A stretch of DNA of 64,000 nucleotides from Patiria miniata (taxonomy: Eukaryota): contig NW_024037060.1 of assembly GCF_015706575.1 (NCBI RefSeq), positions 945,983 through 1,009,982 on the forward strand, read 5' to 3'. A program made the position numbers and the translations under genes. The notes under the pieces were generated by a model. It searched no databases. It was not told the origin of the DNA and saw only the letters and a list, made by a program, of their open reading frames with translations. Each line of letters starts with the position of its first letter. Position 1 is the first letter of the stretch. Of the stretch, positions 7,347 to 55,300 are shown one piece after another.

Positions 7347-7383
7347 TTAGACTGTTCCAAATAAATTGACTTCTGTGTGACAT

Positions 7384-8616: not shown

Positions 8617-8774
8617 CTGTGGGAGAAAAACGATTGGCTGTTTATACAATCAATCCAAAGTGTACGTGGAGTAACGTATACAGCTTTTGGAACGAATATG
8701 TGAATTGAGAGAAAATTTCTCTTTACCAGCCCTATTTACCAGATGAAATCATCATGAGGTTTACTCCTACTCAC

Positions 8775-22300: not shown

Positions 22301-25300
22301 CTTGAGATGTAGGATACAATGTAGTGCCTTCCTTCTCTGTTGTAAGTGGAATATTTGTCGTTTGTGCCTCTGTTGTCGGTTCAAGGGTTGATGGAATGAT
22401 ACTTGTAGCATCCTGATTCGTGGTAGATACCTCTGTTGACGCTTCTTTGGAAGTTACCGGATTGGCCGTAGTACCAACCTCCGTAGTGCCTCCTGCTGTG
22501 TATAACATGTCTTGTGTTGTTTGATCGATAGTAGTTGCTTCTTGTTCAGTGCTTGTTATGACAGTGGAGGCGAGATCCTCTGTTGAAGATTCCAGAGTTG
22601 TACCAGATTTCTCCGTTGTCTCGAAAACTGTTGTTGCATCTGCTTGAGATGTAGGATACAATGTAGTGTCTTCCTCCTCTGTTGTAGCTGCAATATAGGT
22701 CGTTAGTGCCTCAGTTGTCGGTTCAAGGGTTGATGGAATGAGACTTGTAGCATCCTCATTCGTGGTGGCCACCTCTGTTGACGCTTCTTTGGATGTTGCC
22801 TGATTGGTCGTACTACCAACCTCCGTAGTGGGCTCTATCGTGGATAACAAGTCTTGTGTTGATTTATCGATTGTAGTTGCTGCTTGTTCAGTGCTTGTTA
22901 TGACAGTGGAGGTGAGATCCTCTGTTGAGGATTCCAGAGTTGTAACATCCGTTGTCTCGAAAACAGTTGTTACAGCTGCTTGAGATGTAGGATACAATGT
23001 AGTGCCTTCCTTCTCTGTTGTAAGTGGAATATTTGTCGTTTGTGCCTCTGTTGTCGGTTCAAGGGTTGATGGAATGATACTTGTAGTATCCTGATTCGTG
23101 GTAGCCACCTCTGTTGACGCTTCTTTGGATGTTGCCAGGTTGGTCGTACTACCAACCTCCGTAGTGGGCTCTATCGTGGATAATAAGTCTGGTGTTGTTT
23201 TATCGATTGTAGTTGCTGCTTGTTCAGTGCTTGTTATGACAGTGGAGGCGAGATCCTCTGTTGAAGGTTCCAGAGTTGTAACATCCGTTGTCTCGAAAAA
23301 AGTTGTTACAGCTGCTTGAGATGTAGGATACAATGTAGTGCCTTCCTTCTCTGTTGTAGCTGCAATATTTGTCGTTTGTGCCTCTGTTGTCGGTTCAAGT
23401 GTTGATGGAATGATACTTGTAGCATCCTGATTCGTGGTAGCCACCTCTGTTGACGCTTCTTTGGATGTTACTGGATTGACCGTAGTACCAACCTCCGTAG
23501 TACCTCCCACTGTGGATAACAAGTCTTGTGTTGTTTGATCCATTGTAGTTGCTCCTTTTCAGTGCTTGTTTTGAGAGTGGAGGCGAGATCCTCTGTTGAA
23601 GGTTCCAGAGTTGTACCAGATTTCTCTGTTGTCTCGAAAACAGTTGTTACAACTGCTTTTTCCGTTGTCTCGAAAACAGTTGTTACAACTGATTGAGATG
23701 TAGGATGCAATGTAGTGTCTTCCTTCTCTGTTGAAGGTGGAATATTTGTCGTTTGTGCCTCTGTTGTCGGCTCAAGGGTTGATGGAATGATACTTGTAGC
23801 ATCCTGATTCGTGGTAGCCACCTCTGTTGACGCTTCTTTGGATGTTGCCTGAATGGTCGTACTACCAACCTCCGTAGTGGGCTCTATCGTGGATAACAAG
23901 TCTTGTGTTGTTTTATCGATTGTAGTTGCTGCTTGTTCAGTGCTTGTTATGACAGTGGAGGCGAGATCCTCTGTTGAAGATTCCAGAGTTGTAACATCCG
24001 TTGTCTCGAAAACAGTTGTTACAGCTGCTTGAGATGTAGGATACAATGTAGATCCTTCCTTCTCTGTTGTAAGTGGAATATTTGTCGTTTGTGCCTCTGT
24101 TGTCGGTTCAAGGGTTGATGGAATGATACTTGTAGCATCCTGATTCGTGGTAGCCACCTCTGTTGACGCTTCTTTGGATGTTACCGGATTGGCCGTAGTA
24201 CCAACCTCCGTAGTGCCTTCTATCGTGGATAACAAGTCTTGTGTTGTTTGATCGATTGTAGTTGCTTCTTGTTCAGTGCTTGTTATGACAGTGGAGGCGA
24301 GATCCTCTGTTGAAGATTCCAGAGTTGTACCAGATTTCTCCGTTGTCTCGAAAACTGTTGTTACATCTGCTTGAGATGTAGGATACAATGTAGTGTCTTC
24401 CTCCTCTGTTGTAGCTGCAATATTTGTCGTTTGTGCCTCAGTTGTCGGTTCAAGGGTTGATGGAATGATACTTGTAGCATCCTGATTCGTGGTAGCCACC
24501 TCTGTCGACGCTTCTTTGGATGTTACCGGATTGGCCGTAGTACCAACCTCCGTAGTGCCTTCTATCGTGGATAACAAGTCTTGTGTTGTTTGATCGATAG
24601 TAGTTGCTTCTTGTTCAGTGCTTGTTATGACAGTGGAGGCGAGATCCTCTGTTGAAGATTCCAGAGTTGTACCAGATTTCTCCGTTGTCTCGAAAACTGT
24701 TGTTGCATCTTCTTGAGATGTAGGATACAATGTAGTGTCTTCCTCCTCTGTTGTAGCTGCAATATAGGTCGTTTGTGCCTCAGTTGTCGGTTCAAGGGTT
24801 GATGGAATGAGACTTGTAGCATCCTCATTCGTGGTGGCCACCTCTGTTGACGCTTCTTTGGATGTTACCGGATTGGCCGTAGTACCAACCTCCGTAGTGC
24901 CTTTTATCGTGGATAACAAGTCTGGTGTTGTTTGATCGATACTAGTTGCTGCTTGTTCAGTGCTTGTTATGACAGTGGAGGCGAGATCCTCTGTTGAAGA
25001 TTCCAGAGTTGTAACATCCGTTGTCTCGAAAACAGTTGTTACAGCTGCTTGAGATGTAGGATACAATGTAGTGCCTTCCTTCTCTGTTGTAAGTGGAATA
25101 TTTGTCGTTTGTGCCTCTGTTGTCGGTTCAAGGGTTGATGGAATGATACTTGTAGCATCCTGATTCGTGGTAGCCACCTCTGTTGACGCTTCTTTGGAAG
25201 TTACCGGATTGGCCGTAGTACCAACCTCCGTAGTGCCTCCTGCTGTGGATAACAAGTCTGTGTTGTTTGATCGATTGTAGTTGCTTCTTGTTCAGTGCTT

Positions 25301-28300
25301 GTTATGACAGTGGAGGCGAGATCCTCTGTTGAAGATTCCAGAGTTGTAACAGATTTCTCGTTGTCTCGAAAACTGTTGTTACATCTGCTTGAGATGTAGG
25401 ATACAATGTAGTGTCTTCCTCCTCTGTTGTAGTGCAATATTTGTCGTTTGTGCCTCTGTTGTCGGTTCAAGGGTTGATGGAATGAGACTTGTAGCATCCT
25501 GATTCGTGGTAGCCACCTCTGTCGACGCTTCTTTGGATGTTACCGGATTGGCCGTAGTACCAACCTCCGTAGTGCCTTCTATCGTGGATAACAAGTCTGG
25601 TGTTGTTTGATCGATACTAGTTGCTGCTTGTTCAGTGCTTGTTATGACAGTGGAGGCGAGATCCTCTGTTGAAGATTCCAGAGTTGTAACATCCGTTGTC
25701 TCGAAAACAGTTGTAACAGCTGCTTGAGATGTAGGATACAATGTAGTGCCTTCCTCCTCTGTTGTAAGTGGAATATTTGTCGTTTGTGCCTCTGTTGTCG
25801 GTTCAAGGGTTGATGGAATGATACTTGTAGCATCCTGATTCGTGGTAGCCACCTCTGTTGACGCTTCTTTGGATGTTGCCTGATTGGTCGTACTACCAAC
25901 CTCCGTAGTGGGCTCTATCGTGGATAATAAGTCTGGTGTTGTTTTATCGATTGTAGTTGCTGCTTGTTCAGTGCTTGTTATGACAGTGGAGGTGAGATCC
26001 TCTGTTGAAGATTCCAGAGTTGTAACATCCGTTGTCTCGAAAACAGTTGTTACAGCTGCTTGAGATGTAGGATACAATGTAGTGCCTTCCTTCTCTGTTG
26101 TAAGTGGAATATTTGTCGTTTGTGCCTCTGTTGTCGGTTCAAGGGTTGATGGAATGATACTTGTAGCATCCTGATTCGTGGTAGCCACCTCTGTTGACGC
26201 TTCTTTGGAAGTTACCGGATTGGCCGTAGTACCAACCTCCGTAGTGCCTCCTGCTGTGGATAACAAGTCTTGTGTTGTTTGATCGATAGTAGTTGCTTCT
26301 TGTTCAGTGCTTGTTATGACAGTGGAGGCGAGATCCTCTGTTGAAGATTCCAGAGTTGTACCAGATTTCTCCGTTGTCTCGAAAACTGTTGTTACAGCTG
26401 CTTGAGATGTAGGATACAATGTAGTGCCTTCCTTCTCTGTTGTAAGTGGAATATTTGTCGTTTGTGCCTCTGTTGTCGGTTCAAGGGTTGATGGAATGAT
26501 ACTTGTAGCATCCTGATTCGTGGTAGCCACCTCTGTTGACGCTTCTTTGGATGTTGCCTGATTGGTCGTACTACCAACCTCCGTAGTGGGCTCTATCGTG
26601 GATAACAAGTCTTGTGTTGTTTGATCGATAGTAGTTGCTGCTTGTTCAGTGCTTGTTATGACAGTGGAGGCGAGATCCTCTGTTGAGGATTCCAGAGTTG
26701 TAACATCCGTTGTCTCGAAAACAGTTGTTACAGCTGCTTGAGATGTAGGATACAATGTAGTGCCTTCCTTCTCTGTTGTAAGTGGAATATTGTCGTTTGT
26801 GCCTCTGTTGTCGGTTCAAGGGTTGATGGAATGATACTTGTAGCATCCTGATTCGTGGTAGCCACCTCTGTTGACGCTTCTTTGGATGTTGCCTGATTGG
26901 TCGTACTACCAACCTCCGTAGTGGGCTCTATCGTGGATAACAAGTCTTGTGTTGTTTGATCGATACTAGTTGCTGCTTGTTCAGTGCTTGTTATGACAGT
27001 GGAGGCGAGATCCTCTGTTGAAGATTCCAGAGTTGTAACATCCGTTGTCTCGAAAACAGTTGTTACAGCTGCTTGAGATGTAGGATACAATGTAGTGCCT
27101 TCCTTCTCTGTTGTAAGTGGAATATTTGTCGTTTGTGCCTCTGTTGTCGGTTCAAGGGTTGATGGAATGATACTTGTAGCATCCTGATTCGTGGTAGCCA
27201 CCTCTGTTGACGCTTCTTTGGAAGTTACCGGATTGGCCGTAGTACCAACCTCCGTAGTGCCTCCTGCTGTGGATAACAAGTCTTGTGTTGTTTGATCGAT
27301 AGTAGTTGCTTCTTGTTCAGTGCTTGTTATGACAGTGGAGGCGAGATCCTCTGTTGAAGATTCCAGAGTTGTACCAGATTTCTCCGTTGTCTCGAAAACA
27401 GTTGTTGCATCTGCTTGAGATGTAGGATACAATGTAGTGTCTTCCTCCTCTGTTGTAGCTGCAATATAGGTCGTTTGTGCCTCAGTTGTCGGTTCAAGGG
27501 TTGATGGAATGAGACTTGTAGCATCCTGATTCGTGGTAGCCACCTCTGTTGACGCTTCTTTGGATGTTGCCTGATTGGTCGTACTACCAACCTCCGTAGT
27601 GGGCTCTATCGTGGATAACAAGTCTTGTGTTGTTTATCGATTGTAGTTGCTGCTTGTTCAGTGCTTGTTATGACAGTGGAGGTGAGATCCTCTGTTGAGG
27701 ATTCCAGAGTTGTAACATCCGTTGTCTCGAAAACAGTTGTTACAGCTGCTTGAGATGTAGGATACAATGTAGTGCCTTCCTTCTCTGTTGTAAGTGGAAT
27801 ATTTGTCGTTTGTGCCTCTGTTGTCGGTTCAAGGGTTGATGGAATGATACTTGTAGCATCCTGATTCGTGGTAGCCACCTCTGTTGACGCTTCTTTGGAT
27901 GTTGCCAGGTTGGTCGTACTACCAACCTCCGTAGTGGGCTCTATCGTGGATAATAAGTCTTGGTGTTGTTTTATCGATTGTAGTTGCTGCTTGTTCAGTG
28001 CTTGTTATGACAGTGGAGGCGAGATCCTCTGTTGAAGGTTCCAGAGTTGTAACATCCGTTGTCTCGAAAAAAGTTGTTACAGCTGCTTGAGATGTAGGAT
28101 ACAATGTAGTGCCTTCCTTCTCTGTTGTAGCTGCAATATTTGTCGTTTGTGCCTCTGTTGTCGGTTCAAGTGTTGATGGAATGATACTTGTAGCATCCTG
28201 ATTCGTGGTAGCCACCTCTGTTGACGCTTCTTTGGATGTTACTGGATTGACCGTAGTACCAACCTCCGTAGTACCTCCCACTGTGGATAACAAGTCTTGT

Positions 28301-31300
28301 GTTGTTTGATCGATTGTAGTTGCTCCTTTTTCAGTGCTTGTTATGACAGTGGAGGCGAGATCCTCTGTTGAAGGTTCCAGAGTTGTACCAGATTTCTCTG
28401 TTGTCTCGAAAACAGTTGTTACAACTGCTTTTTCCGTTGTCTCGAAAACAGTTGTTACAACTGATTGAGATGTAGGATGCAATGTAGTGTCTTCCTTCTC
28501 TGTTGAAGGTGGAATATTTGTCGTTTGTGCCTCTGTTGTCGGCTCAAGGGTTGATGGAATGATACTTGTAGCATCCTGATTCGTGGTAGCCACCTCTGTT
28601 GACGCTTCTTTGGATGTTGCCTGATTGGTCGTACTACCAACCTCCGTAGTGGGCTCTATCGTGGATAACAAGTCTTGTGTTGTTTATCGATTGTAGTTGC
28701 TGCTTGTTCAGTGCTTGTTATGACAGTGGAGGCGAGATCCTCTGTTGAAGATTCCAGAGTTGTAACATCCGTTGTCTCGAAAACAGTTGTTACAGCTGCT
28801 TGAGATGTAGGATACAATGTAGTGCCTTCCTTCTCTGTTGTAAGTGGAATATTTGTCGTTTGTGCCTCTGTTGTCGGTTCAAGGGTTGATGGAATGATAC
28901 TTGTAGCATCCTGATTCGTGGTAGCCACCTCTGTTGACGCTTCTTTGGATGTTACCGGATTGGCCGTAGTACCAACCTCCGTAGTGCCTCCTGCTGTGGA
29001 TAACAAGTCTTGTGTTGTTTGATCGATTGTAGTTGCTTCTTGTTCAGTGCTTGTTATGACAGTGGAGGCGAGATCCTCTGTTGAAGATTCCAGAGTTGTA
29101 CCAGATTTCTCCGTTGTCTCGAAAACTGTTGTTGCATCTGCTTGAGATGTAGGATACAATGTAGTGTCTTCCTCCTCTGTTGTAGCTGCAATATTGGTCG
29201 TTTGTGCCTCAGTTGTCGGTTCAAGGGTTGATGGAATGAGACTTGTAGCATCCTGATTCGTGGTAGCCACCTCTGTCGACGCTTCTTTGGATGTTACCGG
29301 ATTGGCCGTAGTACCAACCTCCGTAGTGCCTCCTGCTGTGGATAACAAGTCTTGTGTTGTTTGATCGATACTAGTTGCTGCTTGTTCAGTGCTTGTTATG
29401 ACAGTGGAGGCGAGATCCTCTGTTGAAGATTCCAGAGTTGTAACATCCGTTGTCTCGAAAACAGTTGTTACAGCTGCTTGAGATGTAGGATACAATGTAG
29501 TGCCTTCCTTCTCTGTTGTAAGTGGAATATTTGTCGTTTGTGCCTCTGTTGTCGGTTCAAGGGTTGATGGAATGATACTTGTAGCATCCTGATTCGTGGT
29601 AGCCACCTCTGTTGACGCTTCTTTGGAAGTTGCCTGGTTGGTCGTACTACCAACCTCCGTAGTGGGCTCTATCGTGGATAACAAGTCTTGTGTTGTTTGA
29701 TCGATAGTAGTTGCTGCTTGTTCAGTGCTTGTTATGACAGTGGAGGCGAGATCCTCTGTTGAAGATTCCAGAGTTGTAACATCCGTTGTCTCGAAAACAG
29801 TTGTTACAGCTGCTTGAGATGTAGGATACAATGTAGTGCCTTCCTTCTCTGTTGTAAGTGGAATATTTGTCGTTTGTGCCTCTGTTGTCGGTTCAAGGGT
29901 TGATGGAATGATACTTGTAGCATCCTGATTCGTGGTAGCCACCTCTGTTGACGCTTCTTTGGAAGTTACCGGATTGGCCGTAGTACCAACCTCCGTAGTG
30001 CCTCCTGCTGTGGATAACAAGTCTTGTGTTGTTTGATCGATTGTAGTTGCTTCTTGTTCAGTGCTTGTTATGACAGTGGAGGCGAGATCCTCTGTTGAAG
30101 ATTCCAGAGTTGTACCAGATTTCTCCGTTGTCTCGAAAACTGTTGTTACAGCTGCTTGAGATGTAGGATACAATGTAGTGCCTTCCTTCTCTGTTGTAGT
30201 GGAATATTTGTCGTTTGTGCCTCTGTTGTCGGTTCAAGGGTTGATGGAATGAGACTTGTAGCATCCTGATTCGTGGTAGCCACCTCTGTCGACGCTTCTT
30301 TGGATGTTACCGGATTGGCCGTAGTACCAACCTCCGTAGTGCCTCCTGCTGTGGATAACAAGTCTTGTGTTGTTTGATCGATACTAGTTGCTGCTTGTTC
30401 AGTGCTTGTTATGACAGTGGAGGCGAGATCCTCTGTTGAAGATTCCAGAGTTGTAACATCCGTTGTCTCGAAAACAGTTGTTACAGCTGCTTGAGATGTA
30501 GGATACAATGTAGTGCCTTCCTTCTCTGTTGTAAGTGGAATATTTGTCGTTTGTGCCTCTGTTGTCGGTTCAAGGGTTGATGGAATGATACTTGTAGCAT
30601 CCTGATTCGTGGTAGCCACCTCTGTTGACGCTTCTTTGGATGTTGCCTGATTGGTCGTACTACCAACCTCCGTAGTGGGCTCTATCGTGGATAACAAGTC
30701 TTGTGTTGTTTGATCGATAGTAGTTGCTGCTTGTTCAGTGCTTGTTATGACAGTGGAGGCGAGATCCTCTGTTGAAGATTCCAGAGTTGTAACATCCGTT
30801 GTCTCGAAAACAGTTGTTACAGCTGCTTGAGATGTAGGATACAATGTAGTGCCTTCCTTCTCTGTTGTAAGTGGAATATTTGTCGTTTGTGCCTCTGTTG
30901 TCGGTTCAAGGGTTGATGGAATGATACTTGTAGCATCCTGATTCGTGGTAGCCACCTCTGTTGACGCTTCTTTGGATGTTACCGGATTGGCCGTAGTACC
31001 AACCTCCGTAGTGCCTCCTGCTGTGGATAACAAGTCTTGTGTTGTTTGATCGATAGTAGTTGCTGCTTGTTCAGTGCTTGTTATGACAGTGGAGGCGAGA
31101 TCCTCTGTTGAAGATTCCAGAGTTGTACCATCTCCGTTGTCTCGAAAACAGTTGTTACATCTGCTTGAGATGTAGGATACAATGTAGTGTCTTCCTTCTC
31201 TGTTGTAAGTGGAATATTTGTCGTTTGTGCCTCTGTTGTCGGTTCAAGGGTTGATGGAATGATACTTGTAGCATCCTGATTCGTGGTAGCCACCTCTGTT

Positions 31301-34300
31301 GACGCTTCTTTGGATGTTACCGGATTGGCCGTAGTACCAACCTCCGTAGTGCCTTCTATCGTGGATAACAAGTCTTGTGTTGTTTGATCGATAGTAGTTG
31401 CTGCTTGTTCAGTGCTTGTTATGACAGTGGAGGCGAGATCCTCTGTTGAAGATTCCAGAGTTGTAACATCCGTTGTCTCGAAAACAGTTGTTACAGCTGC
31501 TTGAGATGTAGGATACAATGTAGTGCCTTCCTTCTCTGTTGTAAGTGGAATATTTGTCGTTTGTGCCTCTGTTGTCGGTTCAAGGGTTGATGGAATGATA
31601 CTTGTAGCATCCTGATTCGTGGTAGCCACCTCTGTCGACGCTTCTTTGGATGTTACCGGATTGGCCGTAGTACCAACCTCCGTAGTGCCTCCTGCTGTGG
31701 ATAACAAGTCTTGTGTTGTTTGATCGATACTAGTTGCTGCTTGTTCAGTGCTTGTTATGACAGTGGAGGCGAGATCCTCTGTTGAAGATTCCAGAGTTGT
31801 AACATCCGTTGTCTCGAAAACAGTTGTTACAGCTGCTTGAGATGTAGGATACAATGTAGTGCCTTCCTTCTCTGTTGTAAGTGGAATATTTGTCGTTTGT
31901 GCCTCTGTTGTCGGTTCAAGGGTTGATGGAATGATACTTGTAGCATCCTGATTCGTGGTAGCCACCTCTGTTGACGCTTCTTTGGATGTTGCCTGATTGG
32001 TCGTACTACCAACCTCCGTAGTGGGCTCTATCGTGGATAACAAGTCTTGTGTTGTTTGATCGATAGTAGTTGCTGCTTGTTCAGTGCTTGTTATGACAGT
32101 GGAGGCGAGATCCTCTGTTGAAGATTCCAGAGTTGTAACATCCGTTGTCTCGAAAACAGTTGTTACAGCTGCTTGAGATGTAGGATACAATGTAGTGCCT
32201 TCCTTCTCTGTTGTAAGTGGAATATTTGTCGTTTGTGCCTCTGTTGTCGGTTCAAGGGTTGATGGAATGATACTTGTAGCATCCTGATTCGTGGTAGCCA
32301 CCTCTGTTGACGCTTCTTTGGATGTTACCGGATTGGCCGTAGTACCAACCTCCGTAGTGCCTCCTGCTGTGGATAACAAGTCTTGTGTTGTTTGATCGAT
32401 TGTAGTTGCTTCTTGTTCAGTGCTTGTTATGACAGTGGAGGCGAGATCCTCTGTTGAAGATTCCAGAGTTGTACCAGATCTCGTTGTCTCGAAAACAGTT
32501 GTTACAGCTGCTTGAGATGTAGGATACAATGTAGTGCCTTCCTTCTCTGTTGTAGTGGAATATTTGTCGTTTGTGCCTCTGTTGTCGGTTCAAGGGTTGA
32601 TGGAATGAGACTTGTAGCATCCTGATTCGTGGTAGCCACCTCTGTCGACGCTTCTTTGGATGTTACCGGATTGGCCGTAGTACCAACCTCCGTAGTGCCT
32701 CCTGCTGTGGATAACAAGTCTTGTGTTGTTTGATCGATACTAGTTGCTGCTTGTTCAGTGCTTGTTATGACAGTGGAGGCGAGATCCTCTGTTGAAGATT
32801 CCAGAGTTGTAACATCCGTTGTCTCGAAAACAGTTGTTACAGCTGCTTGAGATGTAGGATACAATGTAGTGCCTTCCTTCTCTGTTGTAAGTGGAATATT
32901 TGTCGTTTGTGCCTCTGTTGTCGGTTCAAGGGTTGATGGAATGATACTTGTAGCATCCTGATTCGTGGTAGCCACCTCTGTTGACGCTTCTTTGGATGTT
33001 GCCTGGTTGGTCGTACTACCAACCTCCGTAGTGGGCTCTATCGTGGATAACAAGTCTTGTGTTGTTTGATCGATTGTAGTTGCTGCTTGTTCAGTGCTTG
33101 TTATGACAGTGGAGGCGAGATCCTCTGTTGAGGATTCCAGAGTTGTAACATCCGTTGTCTCGAAAACAGTTGTTACAGCTGCTTGAGATGTAGGATACAA
33201 TGTAGTGCCTTCCTTCTCTGTTGTAAGTGGAATATTTGTCGTTTGTGCCTCTGTTGTCGGTTCAAGGGTTGATGGAATGATACTTGTAGCATCCTGATTC
33301 GTGGTAGCCACCTCTGTTGACGCTTCTTTGGATGTTACCGGATTGGCCGTAGTACCAACCTCCGTAGTGCCTCTGCTGTGGATAACAAGTCTTGTGTTGT
33401 TTGATCGATAGTAGTTGCTTCTTGTTCAGTGCTTGTTATGACAGTGGAGGCGAGATCCTCTGTTGAAGATTCCAGAGTTGTACCATCTCCGTTGTCTCGA
33501 AAACAGTTGTTACATCTGCTTGAGATGTAGGATACAATGTAGTGTCTTCCTTCTCTGTTGTAAGTGGAATATTTGTCGTTTGTGCCTCTGTTGTCGGTTC
33601 AAGGGTTGATGGAATGAGACTTGTAGCATCCTGATTCGTGGTAGCCACCTCTGTCGACGCTTCTTTGGATGTTACCGGATTGGCCGTAGTACCAACCTCC
33701 GTAGTGCCTCCTGCTGTGGATAACAAGTCTTGTGTTGTTTGATCGATACTAGTTGCTGCTTGTTCAGTGCTTGTTATGACAGTGGAGGCGAGATCCTCTG
33801 TTGAAGATTCCAGAGTTGTAACATCCGTTGTCTCGAAAACAGTTGTTACAGCTGCTTGAGATGTAGGATACAATGTAGTGCCTTCCTTCTCTGTTGTAAG
33901 TGGAATATTTGTCGTTTGTGCCTCTGTTGTCGGTTCAAGGGTTGATGGAATGATACTTGTAGCATCCTGATTCGTGGTAGCCACCTCTGTTGACGCTTCT
34001 TTGGATGTTGCCTGATTGGTCGTACTACCAACCTCCGTAGTGGGCTCTATCGTGGATAACAAGTCTTGTGTTGTTTTATCGATTGTAGTTGCTGCTTGTT
34101 CAGTGCTTGTTATGACAGTGGAGGCGAGATCCTCTGTTGAAGATTCCAGAGTTGTACCAGATTTCTCCGTTGTCTCGAAAACTGTTGTTGCATCTGCTTG
34201 AGATGTAGGATACAATGTAGTGTCTTCCTCCTCTGTTGTAGCTGCAATATTGGTCGTTTGTGCCTCAGTTGTCGGTTCAAGGGTTGATGGAATGAGACTT

Positions 34301-43300: not shown

Positions 43301-46300
43301 GTTCCAGAGTTGTAACATCCGTTGTCTCGAAAACAGTTGTTACAGCTGCTTGAGATGTAGGATACAATGTAGTGCCTTCCTTCTCTGTTGTAAGTGGAAT
43401 ATTTGTCGTTTGTGCCTCTGTTGTCGGTTCAAGGGTTGATGGAATGAGACTTGTAGCATCCTGATTCGTGGTAGCCACCTCTGTTGACGCTTCTTTGGAT
43501 GTTGCCTGATTGGTCGTACTACCAACCTCCGTAGTGGGCTCTATCGTGGATAACAAGTCTTGTGTTGTTTGATCGATTGTAGTTGCTGCTTGTTCAGTGC
43601 TTGTTATGACAGTGGAGGCGAGATCCTCTGTTGAGGATTCCAGAGTTGTAACATCCGTTGTCTCGATAACAGTTGTTACATCTGCTTGTGATGTAGGATA
43701 CAATGTAGTGCCTTCCTTCTCTGTTGTAGGTGGAATATTTGTCGTTTGTGCCTCTGTTGTCGGTTCAAGGGTTGATGGAATGATACTTGTAGCATCCTGA
43801 TTTGTGGTAGATACCTCTGTTGACGCTTCTTTGGAAGTTACCGGATTGACCGTAGTACCAACCTCCGTAGTGCCTCCTGCTGTGGATAACAAGTCTTGTG
43901 TTGTTTGATCGATAGTAGTTGCTTCTTGTTCAGTGCTTGTTATGACAGTGGAGGCGAGATCCTCTGTTGAAGATTCCAGAGTTGTACCAGATTTCTCCGT
44001 TGTCTCGAAAACAGTTGTTACAACTGATTGAGATGTAGGATACAATGTAGTGTCTTCCTCCTTTGTTGTAGCTGCAATATTGGTCGTTTGTGCCTCAGTT
44101 GTCGGTTCAAGGGTTGATGGAATGAGACTTGTAGCATCCTGATTCGTGGTAGCCACCTCTGTTGACGCTTCTTTGGATGTTACCGGATTGCCCGTAGTAC
44201 CAACCTCCGTAGTGCCTCCTGCTGTGGATAACAAGTCTTGTGTTGTTTGATCGATAGTAGTTGCTGCTTGTTCAGTGCTTGTTATGACAGTGGAGGCGAG
44301 ATCCTCTGTTGAAGATTCCAGAGTTGTAACATCCGTTGTCTCGAAAACAGTTGTTACAGCTGTTTGAGATGTAGGATACAATGTAGTGCCTTCCTTCTCT
44401 GTTGTAAGTGGAATATTTGTCGTTTGTGCCTCTGTTGTCGGTTCAAGGGTTGATGGAATGATACTTGTATCATCCTGATTCGTGGTAGCCACCTCTGTTG
44501 ACGCTTCTTTGGATGTTGCCTGATTGGTCGTACTACCAACCTCCGTAGTGGGCTCTATTGTGGATAACAAGTCTTGTGTTGTTTGATCGATTGTAGTTGC
44601 TGCTTGTTCAGTGCTTGTTATGACAGTGGAGGCGAGATCCTCTGTTGAGGATTCCAGAGTTGTAACATCCGTTGTCTCGAAAACAGTTGTTACATCTGCT
44701 TGTGATGTAGGATACAATGTAGTGCCTTCCTTCTCTGTTGTAGGTGGAATATTTGTCGTTTGTGCCTCTGTTGTCGGTTCAAGGGTTGATGGAATGATAC
44801 TTGTAGCATCCTGATTCGTGGTAGATACCTCTGTTGACGCTTCTTTGGAAGTTACCGGATTGACCGTAGTACCAACCTCCGTAGTGCCTCCTGCTGTGGA
44901 TAACAAGTCTTGTGTTGTTTGATCGATAGTAGTTGCTTCTTGTTCAGTGCTTGTTATGACAGTGGAGGCGAGATCCTCTGTTGAAGATTCCAGAGTTGTA
45001 CCAGATTTCTCCGTTGTCTCGAAAACAGTTGTTACAACTGATTGAGATGTAGGATACAATGTAGTGTCTTCCTCCTTTGTTGTAGCTGCAATATTGGTCG
45101 TTTGTGCCTCAGTTGTCGGTTCAAGGGTTGATGGAATGAGACTTGTAGCATCCTGATTCGTGGTAGCCACCTCTGTTGACGCTTCTTTGGATGTTACCGG
45201 ATTGCCGTAGTACCAACCTCCGTAGTGCCTCCTGCTGTGGATAACAAGTCTTGTGTTGTTTGATCGATAGTAGTTGCTGCTTGTTCAGTGCTTGTTATGA
45301 CAGTGGAGGCGAGATCCTCTGTTGAAGATTCCAGAGTTGTAACATCCGTTGTCTCGAAAACAGTTGTTACAGCTGCTTGAGATGTAGGATACAATGTAGT
45401 GTCTTCCTTCTCTGTTGAAGTGGAATATTTGTCGTTTGTGCCTCTGTTGTCGGTTCAAGGGTTGATGGAATGATACTTGTAGCATCCTGATTCGTGGTAG
45501 CCACCTCTGTTGACGCTTCTTTGGATGTTGCCTGATTGGTCGTACTACCAACCTCCGTAGTGGGCTCTATCGTGGATAACAAGTCTTGTGTTGTTTGATC
45601 GATTGTAGTTGCTGCTTGTTCAGTGCTTGTTATGACAGTGGAGGCGAGATCCTCTGTTGAGAATTCCAGAGTTGTAACATCCGTTGTCTCGAAAACAGTT
45701 GTTACAGCTGCTTGTGATGTAGGATACAATGTAGTGCCTTCCTTCTCTGTTGTAAGTGGAATATTTGTCGTTTGTGCCTCTGTTGTCGGTTCAAGGGTTG
45801 ATGGAATGATACTTGTAGCATCCTGATTCGTGGTAGATACCTCTGTTGACGCTTCTTTGGAAGTTGCCTGATTGGTCGTACTACCAACCTCCGTAGTGGG
45901 CTCTATCGTGGATAACAAGTCTTGTGTTGTTTGATCGATAGTAGTTGCTGCTTGTTCAGTGCTTGTTATGACAGTGGAGGCGAGATCCTCTGTTGAAGTT
46001 CCAGAGTTGTAACATCCGTTGTCTCGAAAACAGTTGTTACAGCTGCTTGAGATGTAGGATACAATGTAGTGCCTTCCTTCTCTGTTGTAAGTGGAATATT
46101 TGTCGTTTGTGCCTCTGTTGTCGGTTCAAGGGTTGATGGAATGATACTTGTAGCATCCTGATTCGTGGTAGCCACCTCTGTTGACGCTTCTTTGGAAGTT
46201 GCCTGATTGGTCGTACTACCAACCTCCGTAGTGGGCTCTATCGTGGATAACAAGTCTTGTGTTGTTTGATCGATAGTAGTTGCTTCTTGTTCAGTGCTTG

Positions 46301-49300
46301 TTATGACAGTGGAGGCGAGATCCTCTGTTGAAGATTCCAGAGTTGTACCATTTCTCGTTGTCTCGAAAACAGTTGTTACAGCTGCTTGAGATGTAGGATA
46401 CAATGTAGTGTCTTCCTCCTCTGTTGTAGCTGCAATATTGGTCGTTTGTGCCTCAGTTGTCGGTTCAAGGGTTGATGGAATGAGACTTGTAGCATCCTGA
46501 TTCGTGGTAGCCACCTCTGTTGACGCTTCTTTGGATGTTACCGGATTGCCCGTAGTACCAACCTCCGTAGTGCCTCCTGCTGTGGATAACAAGTCTTGTG
46601 TTGTTTGATCGATACTAGTTGCTGCTTGTTCAGTGCTTGTTATGACAGTGGAGGCGAGATCCTCTGTTGAAGATTCCAGAGTTGTAACATCCGTTGTCTC
46701 GAAAACAGTTGTTACAGCTGCTTGAGATGTAGGATACAATGTAGTGCCTTCCTTCTCTGTTGTAAGTGGAATATTTGTCGTTTGTGCCTCTGTTGTCGGC
46801 TCAAGGGTTGATGGAATGATACTTGTAGCATCCTGATTCGTGGTAGCCACCTCTGTTGACGCTTCTTTGGATGTTGCCTGATTGGTCGTACTACCAACCT
46901 CCGTAGTGGGCTCTATCGTGGATAACAAGTCTTGTGTTGTTTGATCGATTGTAGTTGCTGCTTGTTCAGTGCTTGTTATGACAGTGGAGGCGAGATCCTC
47001 TGTTGAGGATTCCAGAGTTGTAACATCCGTTGTCTCGAAAACAGTTGTTACAGCTGCTTGTGATGTAGGATACAATGTAGTGCCTTCCTTCTCTGTTGTA
47101 GGTGGAATATTTGTCGTTTGTGCCTCTGTTGTCGGTTCAAGGGTTGATGGAATGATACTTGTAGCATCCTGATTTGTGGTAGATACCTCTGTTGACGCTT
47201 CTTTGGAAGTTACCGGATTGACCGTAGTACCAACCTCCGTAGTGCCTCCTGCTGTGGATAACAAGTCTTGTGTTGTTTGATCGATAGTAGTTGCTTCTTG
47301 TTCAGTGCTTGTTATGACAGTGGAGGCGAGATCCTCTGTTGAAGATTCCAGAGTTGTACCAGATTTCTCCGTTGTCTCGAAAACAGTTGTTACAACTGCT
47401 TGAGATGTAGGATACAATGTAGTGTCTTCCTCCTTTTTTGTAGCTGCAATATTGGTCGTTTGTGCCTCAGTTGTCGGTTCAAGGGTTGATGGAATGAGAC
47501 TTGTAGCATCCTGATTCGTGGTAGCCACCTCTGTTGACGCTTCTTTGGATGTTACCGGATTGCCCGTAGTACCAACCTCCGTAGTGCCTCCTGCTGTGGA
47601 TAACAAGTCTTGTGTTGTTTGATCGATAGTAGTTGCTGCTTGTTCAGTGCTTGTTATGACAGTGGAGGCGAGATCCTCTGTTGAAGATTCCAGAGTTGTA
47701 ACATCCGTTGTCTCGAAAACAGTTGTTACAGCTGTTTGAGATGTAGGATACAATGTAGTGCCTTCCTTCTCTGTTGTAAGTGGAATATTTGTCGTTTGTG
47801 CCTCTGTTGTCGGCTCAAGGGTTGATGGAATGATACTTGTAGCATCCTGATTCGTGGTAGCCACCTCTGTTGACGCTTCTTTGGATGTTGCCTGATTGGT
47901 CGTACTACCAACCTCCGTAGTGGGCTCTATCGTGGATAACAAGTCTTGTGTTGTTTGATCGATTGTAGTTGCTGCTTGTTCAGTGCTTGTTATGACAGTG
48001 GAGGCGAGATCCTCTGTTGAAGATTCCAGAGTTGTAACATCCGTTGTCTCGAAAACAGTTGTTACATCTGCTTGAGATGTAGGATACAATGTAGTGCCTT
48101 CCTTCTCTGTTGTAGGTGGAATATTTGTCGTTTGTGCCTCTGTTGTCGGTTCAAGGGTTGATGGAATGATACTTGTAGCATCCTGATTTGTGGTAGATAC
48201 CTCTGTTGACGCTTCTTTGGAAGTTACCGGATTGACCGTAGTACCAACCTCCGTAGTGCCTCCTGCTGTGGATAACAAGTCTTGTGTTGTTTGATCGATA
48301 GTAGTTGCTTCTTGTTCAGTGCTTGTTATGACAGTGGAGGCGAGATCCTCTGTTGAAGATTCCAGAGTTGTACCAGATTTCTCCGTTGTCTCGAAAACAG
48401 TTGTTACAACTGCTTGAGATGTAGGATACAATGTAGTGTCTTCCTCCTTTGTTGTAGCTGCAATATTTGTCGTTTGTGCCTCAGTTGTCGGTTCAAGGGT
48501 TGATGGAATGAGACTTGTAGCATCCTGATTCGTGGTAGCCACCTCTGTTGACGCTTCTTTGGATGTTACCGGATTGCCCGTAGTACCAACCTCCGTAGTG
48601 CCTCCTGCTGTGGATAACAAGTCTTGTGTTGTTTGATCGATAGTAGTTGCTGCTTGTTCAGTGCTTGTTATGACAGTGGAGGCGAGATCCTCTGTTGAAG
48701 ATTCCAGAGTTGTAACATCCGTTGTCTCGAAAACAGTTGTTACAACTGTTTGAGATGTAGGATACAATGTAGTGTCTTCCTTCTCTGTTGAAGGTGGAAT
48801 ATTTGTCGTTTGTGCCTCTGTTGTCGGTTCAAGGGTTGATGGAATGATACTTGTAGCATCCTGATTCGTGGTAGCCACCTCTGTTGACGCTTCTTTGGAT
48901 GTTGCCTGATTGGTCGTACTACCAACCTCCGTAGTGGGCTCTATCGTGGATAACAAGTCTTGTGTTGTTTGATCGATTGTAGTTGCTGCTTGTTCAGTGC
49001 TTGTTATGACAGTGGAGGCGAGATCCTCTGTTGAGGATTCCAGAGTTGTAACATCCGTTGTCTCGAAAACAGTTGTTACATCTGCTTGTGATGTAGGATA
49101 CAATGTAGTGCCTTCCTTCTCTGTTGTAGGTGGAATATTTGTCGTTTGTGCCTCTGTTGTCGGTTCAAGGGTTGATGGAATGATACTTGTAGCATCCTGA
49201 TTCGTGGTAGCCACCTCTGTTGACGCTTCTTTGGAAGTTACCGGATTGACCGTAGTACCAACCTCCGTAGTGCCTCCTGCTGTGGATAACAAGTCTTGTG

Positions 49301-52300
49301 TTGTTTGATCGATAGTAGTTGCTTCTTGTTCAGTGCTTGTTATGACAGTGGAGGCGAGATCCTCTGTTGAAGATTCCAGAGTTGTACCATCTCTGTTGTC
49401 TCGAAAACAGTTGTTACAGCTGCTTGAGATGTAGGATACAATGTAGTGCCTTCCTCCTCTGTTGTAGTGCAATATTGGTCGTTTGTGCCTCTGTTGTCGG
49501 TTCAAGGGTTGATGGAATGATACTTGTAGCATCCTGATTCGTGGTAGCCACCTCTGTTGACGCTTCTTTGGATGTTACCGGATTGCCGTACTACCAACCT
49601 CCGTAGTGCCTCCTGCTGTGGATAACAAGTCTTGTGTTGTTTGATCGATAGTAGTTGCTGCTTGTTCAGTGCTTGTTATGACAGTGGAGGCGAGATCCTC
49701 TGTTGAAGATTCCAGAGTTGTAACATCCGTTGTCTCGAAAACAGTTGTTACAGCTGCTTGAGATGTAGGATACAATGTAGTGCCTTCCTTCTCTGTTGTA
49801 AGTGGAATATTTGTCGTTTGTGCCTCTGTTGTCGGTTCAAGGGTTGATGGAATGATACTTGTAGCATCCTGATTCGTGGTAGCCACCTCTGTTGACGCTT
49901 CTTTGGATGTTGCCTGATTGGTCGTACTACCAACCTCCGTAGTGGGCTCTATCGTGGATAACAAGTCTTGTGTTGTTTGATCGATAGTAGTTGCTGCTTG
50001 TTCAGTGCTTGTTATGACAGTGGAGGCGAGATCCTCTGTTGAGGATTCCAGAGTTGTAACATCCGTTGTCTCGAAAACAGTTGTTACAGCTGCTTGAGAT
50101 GTAGGATACAATGTAGTGCCTTCCTTCTCTGTTGTAAGTGGAATATTTGTCGTTTGTGCCTCTGTTGTCGGTTCAAGGGTTGATGAAATGATACTTGTAG
50201 CATCCTGATTCGTGGTAGATACCTCTGTTGACGCTCCTTTGGAAGTTGCCTGATTGGTCGTACTACCAACCTCCGTAGTGGGCTCTATCGTGGATAACAA
50301 GTCTTGTGTTGTTTGATCGATAGTAGTTGCTGCTTGTTCAGTGCTTGTTATGACAGTGGAGGCGAGATCCTCTGTTGAAGGTTCCAGAGTTGTAACATCC
50401 GTTGTCTCGAAAACAGTTGTTACAGCTGCTTGAGATGTAGGATACAATGTAGTGCCTTCCTTTTCTGTTGTAAGTGGAATATTTGTCGTTTGTGTCCTCT
50501 GTTGTCGGTTCAAGGGTTGATGAATGATACTTGTAGCATCCTGATTCGTGGTAGATACCTCTGTTGACGCTCCTTTGGATGTTGCCTGATTGGTCGTACT
50601 ACCAACCTCCGTAGTGGGCTCTATCGTGGATAACAAGTCTTGTGTTGTTTGATCGATTGTAGTTGCTTCTTGTTCAGTGCTTGTTATGACAGTGGAGGCG
50701 AGATCCTCTGTTGAAGATTCCAGAGTTGTACCAGATTTCTCCGTTGTCTCGAAAACAGTTGTCACAACTGATTGAGATGTAGGATGCAATGTTGTGTCTT
50801 CCTCCTTTGTTGTAGCTGCAATATTGGTCGTTTGTGCCTCAGTTGTCGGTTCAAGGGTTGATGGAATGAGACTTGTAGCATCCTGATTCGTGGTAGCCCC
50901 CTCTGTTGACGCTTCTTTGGATGTTACCGGATTGCCCGTAGTACCAACCTCGTAGTGCCTCCTGCTGTGGATAACAAGTCTTGTGTTGTTTGATCGATAC
51001 TAGTTGCTGCTTGTTCAGTGCTTGTTATGACAGTGGAGGCGAGATCCTCTGTTGAAGATTCCAGAGTTGTAACATCCGTTGTCTCGAAAACAGTTGTTAC
51101 AGCTGTTTGAGATGTAGGATACAATGTAGTGCCTTCCTTCTCTGTTGTAAGTGGAATATTTGTCGTTTGTGCCTCTGTTGTCGGCTCAAGGGTTGATGGA
51201 ATGATACTTGTAGCATCCTGATTCGTGGTAGCCACCTCTGTTGACGCTTCTTTGGATGTTGCCTGATTGGTCGTACTACCAACCTCCGTAGTGGGCTCTA
51301 TCGTGGATAACAAGTCTTGTGTTGTTTGATCGATTGTAGTTGCTGCTTGTTCAGTGCTTGTTATGACAGTGGAGGCGAGATCCTCTGTTGAGGATTCCAG
51401 AGTTGTAACATCCGTTGTCTCGAAAACAGTTGTTACATCTGCTTGTGATGTAGGATACAATGTGGTGCCTTCCTTCTCTGTTGTAGGTGGAATATTTGTC
51501 GTTTGTGCCTCTGTTGTCGGTTCAAGGGTTGATGGAATGATACTTGTAGCATCCTGATTTGTGGTAGATACCTCTGTTGACCCTTCTTTGGAAGTTACCG
51601 GATTGACCGTAGTACCAACCTCCGTAGTGCCTCCTGCTGTGGATAACAAGTCTTGTGTTGTTTGATCGATAGTAGTTGCTTCTTGTTCAGTGCTTGTTAT
51701 GACAGTGGAGGCGAATCCTCTGTTGAAGATTCCAGAGTTGTACCAGATTTCTCCGTTGTCTCGAAAACAGTTGTCACAACTGATTGAGATGTAGGATGCA
51801 ATGTAGTGTCTTCCTCCTTTGTTGTAGCTGCAATATTGGTCGTTTGTGCCTCAGTGTTCGGTTCAAGGGTTGATGGAATGAGACTTGTAGCATCCTGATT
51901 CGTGGTAGCCACCTCTGTTGACGCTTCTTTGGAAGTTACCGGATTGGCCGTAGTACCAACCTCCGTAGTGCCTCCTGCTGTGGATAACAAGTCTTGTGTT
52001 GTTTGATCGATAGTAGTTGCTTCTTGTCCAGTGCTTGTTATGACAGTGGAGGCGAGATCCTCTGTTGAAGATTCCAGAGTTGTACCAGATTTCTCCGTTG
52101 TCTCAAAAACTGTTGTTGCATCTGCTTGAGATGTAGGATACAATGTAGTGTCTTCCTCCTCTGTTGTAGCTTCAATATTGGTCGTTTGTGCCTCAGTTGT
52201 CGGTTCAAGAGTTGACGGAATGAGACTCGTAGCATCCTGATTTGTGGTAGCCACTTCTGTTGACGCTTCTTTGGATGTTGCCGGATTGACCGTTGTACCA

Positions 52301-55300
52301 ACCTCCGTAGTGCCTTCTATCGTGGAAAACAAGTCTTGTGTTGTTTGATCGATTGTAGTTGCTGCTTGTTCAGTGCTTGTTATGACAGTGGAGGCGAGAT
52401 CCTCCGTTGAAGGATCCAGAGTTGTACCAGATTTCTCCGTTGTCTCGAAAACTGTTGTTGCATCTGCTTGAGATGTAGGATACAATGTAGTGCCTTCCTT
52501 CTCTTTTGTAGCTTCAATATTGGTCGTTTGTGCCTCAGTTGTCGGTTCAAGGGTTGATGGAATGAGACTTGTAGCATCCTGATTCGTGGTAGCCACCTCT
52601 GTTGACGCTTCTTTGGATGTTACCGGATTGGCCGAAGTACCAACCTCCGTAGTGCCTCCTGCTGTGGATAACAAGTCTTGTGTTGTTTGATCGATAGTAG
52701 TTGCTGCTTGTAGAGTGCTTGTTATGACAGTGGAGGCGAGATCCTCTGTTGAAGATTCCCGAGTTGTAACATCCGTTGTCTCGAAAACTGTTGTTACAGC
52801 GGCTTGAGATGTTGGATACAATGTAGTGCCTTCCTTCTCTGTTGTAAGTGGAATATTTGTCGTTTGTGCCTCTGTTGTCGGTTCAAGGGTTGATGGAATG
52901 ATACTAGTGGCATCCTGATTCGTGGTAGCCACCTCTGTCGACGCTTCTTTGGATGTTACTGGATTAACCGTAGTACCAACCTCCGTAGTACCTGTGGATA
53001 ACAAGTGTTGTGTTGTTTGATCCATTGTAGTTGCTCCTTGTTCAGTGCTTGTTATGAGAGAGGAGGCGAGATCCTCTGTTGAAGGTTCCAGAGTTGTACC
53101 AGATTTCTCTGTTGTCTCGAAAACAGTTGCTACAACTGCTTTCTCCGTTGTCTCGAAAACAGTTGTTACAACTGAGTGAGATGTAGGATGCATAGTAGTG
53201 TCTACCTTCTCTGTTGAAGGTGGAATATTTGTCGTTTGTGCCTCTGTTGTCGGTTCAAGGGTTGATGGAATGATACTTGTAGCATCCTGATTCGTGGTAG
53301 CCACCTCTGTTGACGCTTCCTTGGATGTTGCCTGATTGGTCGTACTACCAACCTCCGTAGTGGGCTCTATCGTGGATAACAAGTCTTGTGTTGTTTTATC
53401 GATTGTAGTTGTTGCTTGTTCAGTGCTTGTTATGACAGTGGAGGCGAGATCCTCTGTTGAGGATTCCAGAGTTGTAACATCCGTTGTCTCGAAAACAGTT
53501 GTTACAACTGTTTGAGATGTACGATACAATGTATTGTCTTCCTTCTCTGTTGAAGGTGGAATATTTTTCGTTTGTGCCTTTGTTGACGGTTCAAGAGTTG
53601 ACGGAATGATACTCGTAGCATCCTGATTCGTGGTAGCCACTTCTGTTGACGCTTCTTTGGATGTTGCCGGATTGGCCGTAGTACCAACCTCCGTAGTGCC
53701 TTCTATCGTGGATAACAAGTCTAGTGTTGTTTGATCGATTGTAGTTGCTGCTTGTTCAGTGCTTGTTATGACAGTGGAGGCGAGATCCTCCGTTGAAGGC
53801 TCCAGAGTTGTACCAGATTTCTCCGTTGTCTCGAAAACTGTTGTTGCATCTGCTTGAGATGTAGGATACAATGTAGTGTCTTCCTCCTTTGTTGTAGCTG
53901 CAATATTGGTCGTTTGTGCCTCAGTTGTCGGTTCAAGGGTTGATGGAATGAGACTTGTAGCATCCTGATTCGTGGTAGCCACCTCTGTTGACGCTTCTTT
54001 GGATGTTACCGGATTGGCCGTAGTACCAACCTCCGTAGTGCCTTCTATCGTGGATAACAAGTCTTGTGTTGTTTGATCGATAGTAGTTGCTGCTTGTTCA
54101 GTGCTTGTTATGACAGTGGAGGCGAGATCCTCTGTTGAAGATTCCAGAGTTGTAACATCCGTTGTCTCGAAAACAGTTCTTACAGCGGCTTGAGATGTTG
54201 GATACAATGTAGTGCCTTCCTTCTCTGTTGTAAGTCGAATATGTGTCGTTTGTGCCTCTGTTGTCGGTTCCTGGGTTGATGGAATGATACTAGTGGCATC
54301 CTGATTCGTGGTAGCCACCTCTGTCGACGCTTCTTTGGATGTTACTGGATTAACCGTAGTACCAACCTCCGTAGTACCTCCTACTGTGGATAACAAGTCT
54401 TGTGTTGTTTGATCCATTGTAGTTGCTCCTTGTTCAGTGCTTGCTATGAGAGTGGAGGCGAGATCCTCTGTTGAAGGTTCCAGAGTTGTACCAGATTTCT
54501 CTGTTGTCTCGAAGACAGTTGTTACAACTGCTTTCTCCGTTGTCTCGAAAACAGTTGTTACAACTGATTGAGATGTAGGATGCAAGTAGTGTCTTCCTTC
54601 TCTGTTGAAGGTGGAATATTTGTCGTTTGTGCCTCTGTTGTCGGTTCAAGGGTTGATGGAATGAGACTTGTAGCATCCTGATTCGTGGTAGCCACCTCTG
54701 TTGACGCTTCTTTGGATGTTACTGGATTGGCCGTAGTACCAACCTCCGTAGTACCTCCTACTGTGGATAACAAGTTTTTTGTTGTTTGATCCATTGTAGT
54801 TGCTCCTTGTTCAGTGCTTGTTATGAGAGTGGAGGCGAGATCCTCTGTTGAAGGTTCCAGAGTTGTATCAGATTTCTCTGTTGTCTCGAAAACAGTTGTT
54901 ACAACTGCTTTCTCCGTTGTCTCGAAAACAGTTGTTACAACTGAGTGAGATGTAGGATGCATAGTAGTGTCTTCCTTCTCTGTTGAAGGTGGAATATTTG
55001 TCGTTTGTGCCTCTGTTGTCGGCTCAAGGGTTGATGGAATGATACTTGTAGCATCCTGATTCGTGGTAGCCACCTCTGTTGACGCTTCTTTGGATGTTGC
55101 CTGATTGGTCGTACTACCAACCTCCGTAGTGGGCTCTATCGTGGATAACAAGTCTTGTGTTGTTTTATCGATTGTAGTTGCTGCTTGTTCAGTGCTTGTT
55201 ATGACAGTGGAGTCGAGATCCTCTGTTGAGGATTCCAGAGTTGTAACATCCGTTGTCTCGAAAACAGTTGTTACAACTGTTTGAGATGTAGGATACAATG

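Follow-up and report, generated by a model that had tools for sequence, protein, structure and literature searches.

Vertebrate transmembrane mucins of the SEA type (MUC3, MUC12, MUC13, and MUC17) combine an exon of PTS tandem repeats with an EGF-SEA-EGF arrangement, a transmembrane (TM) segment, and a cytoplasmic tail. Indels left behind in long-read assemblies that were polished only partly or not at all reportedly produce false frameshifts and truncated gene models, a point attributed to Watson and Warr (2019, Nat Biotechnol). In the collapsed PacBio assembly of T. brucei Lister 427, INDEL errors and apparent frameshifts occur at nearby allelic variants and at repeats that differ in length; ORFs are truncated where nearby variants shift the read alignments and where internal repeats vary in length, 98% of the errors are INDELs or complex events, and the breaks vanish after correction/phasing (Cosentino, Brink & Siegel 2021, PMC8445201). 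The locus described here, from the bat star Patiria miniata, can be compared to all of these.

The locus is probably a single, functional, and very large transmembrane mucin gene, identified as P. miniata LOC119729475, whose RefSeq model covers just the C-terminal 530 aa. Within the window (the whole 64,000-nucleotide stretch that was analysed), the gene encodes a putative signal peptide, an S/T-rich array, an EGF-SEA-EGF region, a TM segment, and a tail (Table 1), with the last coding piece detected ending near 5793. The putative signal peptide (MSIWTVLAVASLLYP..., hydrophobic after the ATG) and the putative single membrane span (IIIIASSVTAAVLLIIALVLVVVHLL, then RRRKKRRK) with its cytoplasmic tail were read by eye. 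The giant exon ends at a splice donor, GTACGT, directly after 10331, and the six exons downstream of it have GT/AG sites, match the RefSeq protein at 100% identity, and encode the EGF_CA, SEA, and EGF domains. All Pfam matches of the C-terminal region exceed the curated cut-offs and place the SEA domain next to the putative membrane span with an EGF-like domain on either side.

Similar to vertebrate MUC3, MUC12, MUC13, and MUC17, the P. miniata gene has a giant S/T-rich repeat exon followed by EGF_CA, SEA, EGF, a hydrophobic span, and a basic stop-transfer motif, a likeness of architecture. Unlike the vertebrate mucins, its repeat is 112 or 114 aa long, rich in T, S, and E, and poor in P, and the protein is that of an echinoderm; due to the low proline content, we describe the array as TS-rich rather than as a classic PTS array. 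Many long S/T-rich proteins in a representative library carry an EGF-SEA-EGF-TM module C-terminally as well. The sole match to the C-terminal protein query was the RefSeq protein of LOC119729475 itself, no match to a 450-aa repeat query was among the 8000 candidates listed from a set of 5.8 billion proteins, and a conserved 28-mer of the array had no match in metagenome contigs.

Table 1. Features of the P. miniata mucin locus, in window coordinates.
Feature	Position	Strand	Remarks
Whole gene, LOC119729475 extended to likely true start	5793..57674	-	ATG of MSIWTVLAVASLLYP... at 57674
Giant coding exon, ~47.3 kb	10331..57674	-	signal-peptide-like N-terminus, unique S/T-rich N-terminal part, tandem array
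Tandem array, 137 units	10380..57014	-	units 336 bp (TTDVTT type) or 342 bp (TTEKSGTT type)
EGF_CA exon (calcium-binding EGF-like domain)	9698..9820	-	PF07645, residues 101-140 of P0001, E = 4.8e-10
SEA domain, two exons (8917-8775, 8616-8394)	8394..8917	-	PF01390, residues 146-253, E = 5.8e-9
Second EGF-like domain exon	7952..8092	-	Pfam EGF_3/EGF at 269-300
Hydrophobic membrane-spanning stretch IIIIASSVTAAVLLIIALVLVVVHLL, RRRKKRRK stop-transfer motif, start of cytoplasmic tail (putative)	7390..7787	-	direct sequence reading
Frame-intact 5' part: start codon, unique N-terminal region, first more diverged units	54561..57794	-	stop-free stretch
Zone of all 42 non-3n indels, 30 units	23559..54585	-	
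Frame-intact 3' array part and degenerate last units	10182..23558	-	4459 codons without stop
1-bp deletions, first part	54585, 51714, 50951, 50524, 49587, 49467, 49394, 46356, 45998, 45417, 45206	-	
1-bp deletions, second part	42193, 41867, 40113, 39988, 39339, about 39255, 38597, 38550, 37610, 37443, 36074	-	
1-bp deletions, third part	33373, 32554, about 32481, 30198, 28685, 27632, 26791, 25432, 25359, 25259, 23559	-	
+1 insertions	50495, 27961	-	
-2 deletions	about 46350, about 42311, about 32478	-	
-4 deletions	about 33489, about 31134	-	
Complex -5/+2 event	38580-38574	-	

Cutting at a conserved anchor divided the array into its units, which have an S+T content of 38-39% and all lie in the one exon; a few are 375-414 bp long with additional 36-bp sub-repeats. 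The original prediction had described the interior of the array as homogenised, which holds at the multi-kb scale (stretches of 5-10 kb, where the interior differs from its other registers by only about 2-3%) but not per unit, as single units in the intact 3' part are no less repetitive than those of the interior and that part is more distinctive only at 5-10 kb. This 3' part contains a 6-unit higher-order repeat with identical units (u111=u117, u114=u122). The boundary at 23.5 kb was also considered as a spurious tiling duplicate of u83-86, and this was rejected: the +14-unit relation spans ~15 units at 0-25 substitutions per unit and looks like a genuine old duplication and not an identical overlap.

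When each affected unit was aligned to its nearest clean unit, 42 indels with a length not divisible by three (non-3n) were found in 30 units, all within 54585-23559. Units with a length not divisible by 3 number 27, all between u6 and u98, and three further units (u18, u21, and u30) carry internally compensated indels. As judged from stop-free stretches on the minus strand, the S/T-rich frame switches ~28 times between 54561 and 23558, almost always by -1. The original prediction that frame disruptions are confined to the array interior, with an intact frame from ~10179 to 23543, was thus borne out (the open stretch runs from 23558 to 10182), and the four deletions it gave as examples were all recovered, at 25251, 25357, 25429, and 26784, in strings present in 2-5 copies each vs 32-101 copies of the consensus form. 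Its statement that each break is a 1-bp deletion was too narrow, since next to ~33 one-bp deletions there are 2 one-bp insertions, 3 two-bp deletions, 2 four-bp deletions, and 1 complex -5/+2 event; ~39 of the 42 events are deletions vs 2-3 insertions, and ~80% are 1-bp deletions.

The frame stays intact over 13.4 kb at the 3' side and 3.2 kb at the 5' side. At the interior rate of 1.35 events per kb, 17.8 events would be expected in the 3' array part and 0 were found (P(0) = 1.8e-8), so the confinement of the breaks to the interior is not due to chance. The C-terminal coding exons (about 1.3 kb) likewise stay open downstream of all breaks. We would like to note, as a counterpoint to an assembly artefact, that an unpolished CLR assembly might also be expected to have indels in the 13.4-kb clean part.

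The ratio of non-3n indels to private substitutions is 42:34 in the interior vs 0:58 in the array parts on its two sides (Fisher p = 6e-14), and no in-frame nonsense substitution was found in any unit of the array. The earlier remark that substitutions are almost absent therefore describes the indel-dominated spectrum correctly but overlooks the interior's 34 private substitutions. The deletions also favour particular sites. Columns polymorphic among clean units (MAF >= 10%) are overlapped by 20 of the 30 one-bp deletions, vs 14% expected from deletions simulated through the same pipeline (p = 7e-11), and the number of events per column climbs with variant frequency, from 0.027 (MAF < 2%) to 0.07 (2-10%), 0.50 (10-25%), and 0.64 (>= 25%), a ~20-fold concentration. 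In the intact 3' part, these variable columns show the same degree of polymorphism yet are deletion-free, and thus are not intrinsic mutation hotspots. Some 12 of the 42 events fall inside a roughly 14-nt site of a 6-bp length polymorphism (p = 9e-8), where they grade through intermediate forms that retain 2, 3, 4, or 5 of the 6 bases and also give chimeric combinations (AAATCTGTTACA in u51 and u92) absent from every clean unit. As to surroundings, the best shifted 5-kb register is <3% different around 40 of the 41 events that could be scored, and the 37 units in which it is >= 3% different hold only 1.

The original prediction had also proposed comparing homopolymer and non-homopolymer contexts. 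This comparison showed that the breaks are tied to variant sites and are not homopolymer-driven: the A4 run in CTCGAAAAC, the unit's longest invariant homopolymer, is intact in 94/94 interior copies. In 22 of 30 cases, the deleted base does belong to a run of at least 2, vs 43% expected (p = 8e-4), a mild enrichment, and homopolymers as the main cause were rejected.

Taken together, the indel-dominated and deletion-biased spectrum, the association with variant sites, the confinement to the interior, the intact non-repeat exons, and the provenance of the assembly argue, at a probability of roughly 85%, that the frame breaks are consensus errors from a noisy-long-read assembly left unpolished, and not mutations in the animal or the marks of a decaying pseudogene; this agrees with the consensus or polishing error that had been suspected from the outset. 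FALCON-sense-type scoring, as in Canu read correction, leaves out a position if none of the bases there accounts for more than half of the coverage. P. miniata v3.0 (GCA_015706575.1) was assembled from PacBio Sequel CLR reads at 125x using Canu with default parameters, Hi-C, and 3D-DNA merging of overlapping contigs, and the text of the assembly paper is without the terms polish, Arrow, Pilon, and Racon (PMC13317027). The 100% identity to the RefSeq protein of LOC119729475 suggests that the window derives from this assembly. We infer that, with the 47-kb array assembled by Canu from noisy PacBio CLR reads and no accurate-read polishing described, reads from the middle of the array (or from the two haplotypes) could not be placed uniquely among 5-10 kb registers that are ~2-3% apart. 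The resulting pile-ups would blend unit variants, leave no clear majority base at variant columns, and drop the base, yielding a 1-bp deletion; the 6-bp difference between the two unit types, if blended in the same way, would yield partial forms of 1-5 bp. At the array ends, more diverged units and unique flanks would anchor the reads and give a clean consensus. A simple version of this mixing model found no support, as the best shifted 5-kb register differs at the deletion site in 0/20 cases vs 2.8 expected, and the top three registers gave 9 differing vs 9.8 expected. Given the negative best-register test, any mixing must have drawn on many registers, arisen during read correction, or come from the other haplotype.

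Similar to the T. brucei Lister 427 case, this is a noisy long-read assembly with ORF breaks at variants and length-variable repeats. In T. brucei, accurate reads proved the errors, and the copies confused with each other were the allele pairs of ordinary genes; in P. miniata, where errors are the probable reading, the confusable copies may instead be registers of the repeat, haplotypes of the 47-kb array, or both. As in the cases ascribed to Watson and Warr, the RefSeq model is shortened, to 530 aa; those cases usually span the whole genome and track homopolymers, whereas the P. miniata errors are limited to the non-unique array interior and are variant-linked.

A different reading takes the deletions as real, with the locus being a young pseudogene, or one haplotype carrying a dead allele, in which frameshifts accumulate while unequal crossing-over copies units. 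We consider this unlikely, even though three identical deletion pairs (u68/u75, u71/u78, and u21/u34) lie at offsets matching local segmental or higher-order duplications and RefSeq was able to model just the last 530 aa. As a counterpoint to the artefact, real mutations copied by duplication would mimic such pairs. In natural gene decay, substitutions are far more numerous than indels, some of them are nonsense changes, and indels vary in size; here, indels at least equal private substitutions (a ratio above 1:1), with 0 nonsense substitutions and mostly 1-bp deletions. A pseudogene would also be expected to carry lesions across its whole coding sequence, and selection would be lost past the first break at 54585, yet all breaks lie within the interior zone, and the 13.4-kb array part and the C-terminal exons remain open. 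Nor is there a reason for natural deletions to strike unit-variable columns or to be graded within the 6-bp length polymorphism. In a variant of this reading, the 47-kb mucin array was inactivated very recently and its single-base losses favour paralogous variant sites, for example by error-prone heteroduplex mismatch repair in gene conversion between units. We regard this variant as quite improbable; if true, it would reveal a repeat-specific mutational mechanism visible in one genome. More generally, if the deletions were real, the pseudogene would be exceptionally young and its pattern of mutations strange; the evidence points against that.

The errors could instead belong to the assembly but be simple consensus errors, random or homopolymer-related, caused by low read support in the interior, with no mixing of variants. 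The enrichment of deleted bases in short runs and the negative result of the best-competitor mixing test are in line with this, as is the observed rate of about 0.13%, which is typical of a low-depth CLR consensus. Nevertheless, the intact A4 runs, the 20-fold dose-response with variant frequency, the clustering of events at the length polymorphism, and the recurrence at one column in 2-3 units, which a random process is not expected to produce, make this explanation very improbable. It is scarcely credible that the frame changes are biologically meaningful, whether as programmed ribosomal frameshifting, RNA editing, or several separate genes or ORFs. Nothing specific favours this beyond the appearance of the region as a chain of ORFs of 180-1200 codons, every one of which continues the repeat without a change of register. 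Stretches that are out of frame reach stops within tens of codons, the sequence contexts of the breaks vary by site with no recurring slippery or structured signals, and Rfam and tRNA scans of the window gave no match.

Being most likely consensus errors, the breaks themselves are an ordinary finding. Their anatomy may nevertheless offer a diagnostic of such artefacts that needs no reads: indels fall on paralogous-variant and length-polymorphic columns, their frequency scales with variant frequency, and they occur solely where multi-kb registers differ by <~3%. For P. miniata, the frame breaks have cut a probably functional sea-star transmembrane mucin of ~16,000 aa to a RefSeq model of 530 aa, and counts of pseudogenes, mucins, or repeat proteins taken from P. 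miniata v3.0 or similar CLR-only assemblies would mislead.

The S/T-rich frame of the minus-strand mucin array stays open over two stretches, 57794-54561 and 23558-10182 (the latter 4459 codons), and between the two it shifts approximately 28 times, almost always by -1. With a conserved 20-mer as the cut site, the array yields 137 units, numbered 5' to 3' along the gene from u0 (at 57014) through u136 (at 10715). Unit length is not a multiple of 3 in 27 units, every one of them within u6-u98, and internally compensated events are found in 3 further units. When the affected units were aligned to the nearest clean unit, 42 indels of a length not divisible by three (non-3n events) were obtained, spanning 54585-23559. 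The interior rate of 1.35 events per kb predicts 17.8 events in the clean 3' array, where 0 were seen (P(0) = 1.8e-8); the original observation that frame breaks are limited to the array interior is borne out. The four deletions offered there as examples were all found, each rare relative to its consensus form. The claim that each break is a 1-bp deletion fits about 33 of these events but not the 2 one-bp insertions, 3 two-bp deletions, 2 four-bp deletions and 1 complex event; among frame-breaking events there are more than 10 deletions for every insertion. Accompanying substitutions, said to be almost lacking, are present, with the ratio of non-3n indels to private substitutions being 42:34 in the interior versus 0:58 across both clean parts of the array (Fisher p = 6e-14). 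No in-frame nonsense substitution was found in any unit after gap filling.

In translation the array is a repeat rich in Thr, Ser and Glu with a unit of 112 or 114 aa; a 6-bp insertion separates its two unit types (...FETTDVTT... versus ...FETTEKSGTT...). A few units, listed in the table, reach 375-414 bp through one or two surplus copies of a 36-bp sub-repeat, AVVTTVFETTEK; most of these copies are in frame, and the one in u53, 29 bp long, is scrambled by several small indels. Relative to other units, in-frame deletions of 18 bp at 42011 (u43) and 6 bp at 52993 (u11) leave the frame unaffected and may be genuine unit variants. A 6-unit (~2 kb) higher-order repeat is seen in the 3' part of the array (u108-u119), offsets of 3, 5, 7, 10 and 13 units in the interior, and a 14-unit (~4.7 kb) duplication tying u76-u90 to u90-u104.

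Features of the mucin gene and its repeat array (window coordinates)
Feature	Position	Strand
Putative start: ATG, hydrophobic N-terminus MSIWTVLAVASLLYP..., unique S/T-rich stretch	ATG at 57674, upstream of array	minus
Tandem array, skewed composition, 336-bp period	~57.8 kb to 10.2 kb	minus
Units with extra 36-bp sub-repeat (u2, u3, u5, u6, u10, u45, u53, u83, u97)	e.g. 56039, 55625, 54911, 54534, 53142, 41310, 38601, 28431, 23659	
End of giant exon, GT donor	directly after 10331	minus
Six downstream exons, canonical splice sites	9820-9698, 8917-8775, 8616-8394, 8092-7952, 7787-7390, onward to ~5793	minus

We compared the array to itself shifted by whole units (each shift being a register), scoring events in 15-unit (~5 kb) windows. 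For 40 of the 41 scorable events the best shifted register is less than 3% divergent, and the 37 units with a divergence of 3% or more contain just 1 event. Over 5-10 kb, divergence from the best alternative register is 1.6-3% in the interior, 4-4.9% in the clean 3' part and 3-6% in the 5' part; the default overlap tolerance of Canu for corrected PacBio reads is 4.5%. The interior can therefore be called homogenised, as originally proposed, at the 5-10 kb scale, where it differs less from alternative registers, but not at the unit level, where the clean 3' part, with its higher-order repeat and identical units, is equally repetitive.

Within the unit, 20 of 30 one-bp deletions overlap columns polymorphic among clean units (MAF >= 10%), compared with 14% of 2979 simulated deletions run through the identical pipeline (p = 7e-11), and events per column climb with variant frequency, from 0.027 (MAF < 2%) to 0.64 (MAF >= 25%). 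These deletion-prone columns are just as polymorphic in the clean 3' part and are therefore not intrinsic mutation hotspots. Roughly 12 of the 42 events fall within the ~14-nt site of the 6-bp length polymorphism (p = 9e-8), forming a graded series of partial forms that keep 2, 3, 4 or 5 bases out of 6, and the chimeric linkage AAATCTGTTACA at this site is absent from every clean unit. Simple low-depth or homopolymer error is very improbable: the A4 in CTCGAAAAC, the unit's longest invariant run, is intact in 94/94 interior copies. No more than a mild excess of deleted bases in runs of at least 2 is observed.

The P. miniata v3.0 assembly (GCA_015706575.1) was built from PacBio Sequel reads at 125x coverage using Canu (Dec-2019) with default parameters, then scaffolded with 3D-DNA, including the merging of many overlapping contigs (PMC13317027). 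The words polish, Arrow, Pilon, Racon and purge are absent from the paper describing it (PMC13317027). To judge by its 100% match to the RefSeq protein of this assembly, the window very likely stems from it. A direct precedent for the frame breaks is provided by T. brucei, where INDELs or complex events made up 98% of the errors in a collapsed PacBio assembly and ORFs were truncated both at internal repeats differing in length and at neighbouring allelic variants, which misled read alignment (PMC8445201).

We consider the frame breaks to be, with a probability of about 0.85, an assembly artefact of the variant-mixing kind, and as such ordinary and no real genomic feature. Reads of other registers, of the second haplotype or of both would end up in the interior pile-ups; wherever a column is variant, no single base would clearly prevail and the consensus would skip the position, and at the 6-bp indel the gap would be only partly resolved in the consensus. 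FALCON-sense-type scoring (support minus half coverage), part of Canu correction, acts in this base-skipping manner. Mixing with the single best shifted register was rejected as a specific form, divergence from the unit at deletion sites being not above chance. Three deletion pairs (u68/u75, u71/u78 and u21/u34) sit at the offsets of local duplications, which would fit either real mutations that were inherited or a consensus that behaves deterministically where pile-ups are similar. A real pseudogene or dead allele is unlikely: translation would not extend past the first break, but 13.4 kb of array and every C-terminal exon downstream of it are still open, which counts against it. That the frame changes are programmed in some way is scarcely credible.

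In character the window is eukaryote-like, and its flanks are without dense coding. Overlapping ORFs of 70-163 aa cluster on both strands at 279-1112, where G+C is slightly raised, and could be what remains of a repeat or transposon. An unbroken 26-base poly-G (62906-62931) lies in the mucin gene's 5' flank, its length probably unreliable in a CLR-only consensus. A 162-aa antisense ORF (56983-57471, plus strand) opposite the mucin N-terminal coding region is most likely a by-product of skewed composition and no gene. The six exons downstream of the giant exon read through cleanly, and their translation is 100% identical to the NCBI 'uncharacterized protein LOC119729475 [Patiria miniata]' (530 aa). 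This protein contains EGF_CA, SEA and EGF domains, all above Pfam cut-offs, followed by a hydrophobic span and then RRRKKRRK; judged from these sequence features, the gene probably encodes a bat-star transmembrane mucin-type protein. The EGF-SEA-EGF-TM module is C-terminal in many long S/T-rich proteins of the representative library. The RefSeq start of LOC119729475 (gene span 5793-57674, minus) is an internal Met inside the last degenerate repeat unit. The true gene start is likely 57674, and over 95% of the coding sequence would therefore be unannotated.

Mis-assembly of the interior would leave in doubt how many copies the array (10380-57014) really has in the animal. The underlying gene, for the most part unannotated, probably belongs to a kind already known, the SEA-type transmembrane mucins, and, were the array open, its full product would be approximately 16,000 aa long, with RefSeq covering the C-terminus and no more of the array than its last degenerate unit.
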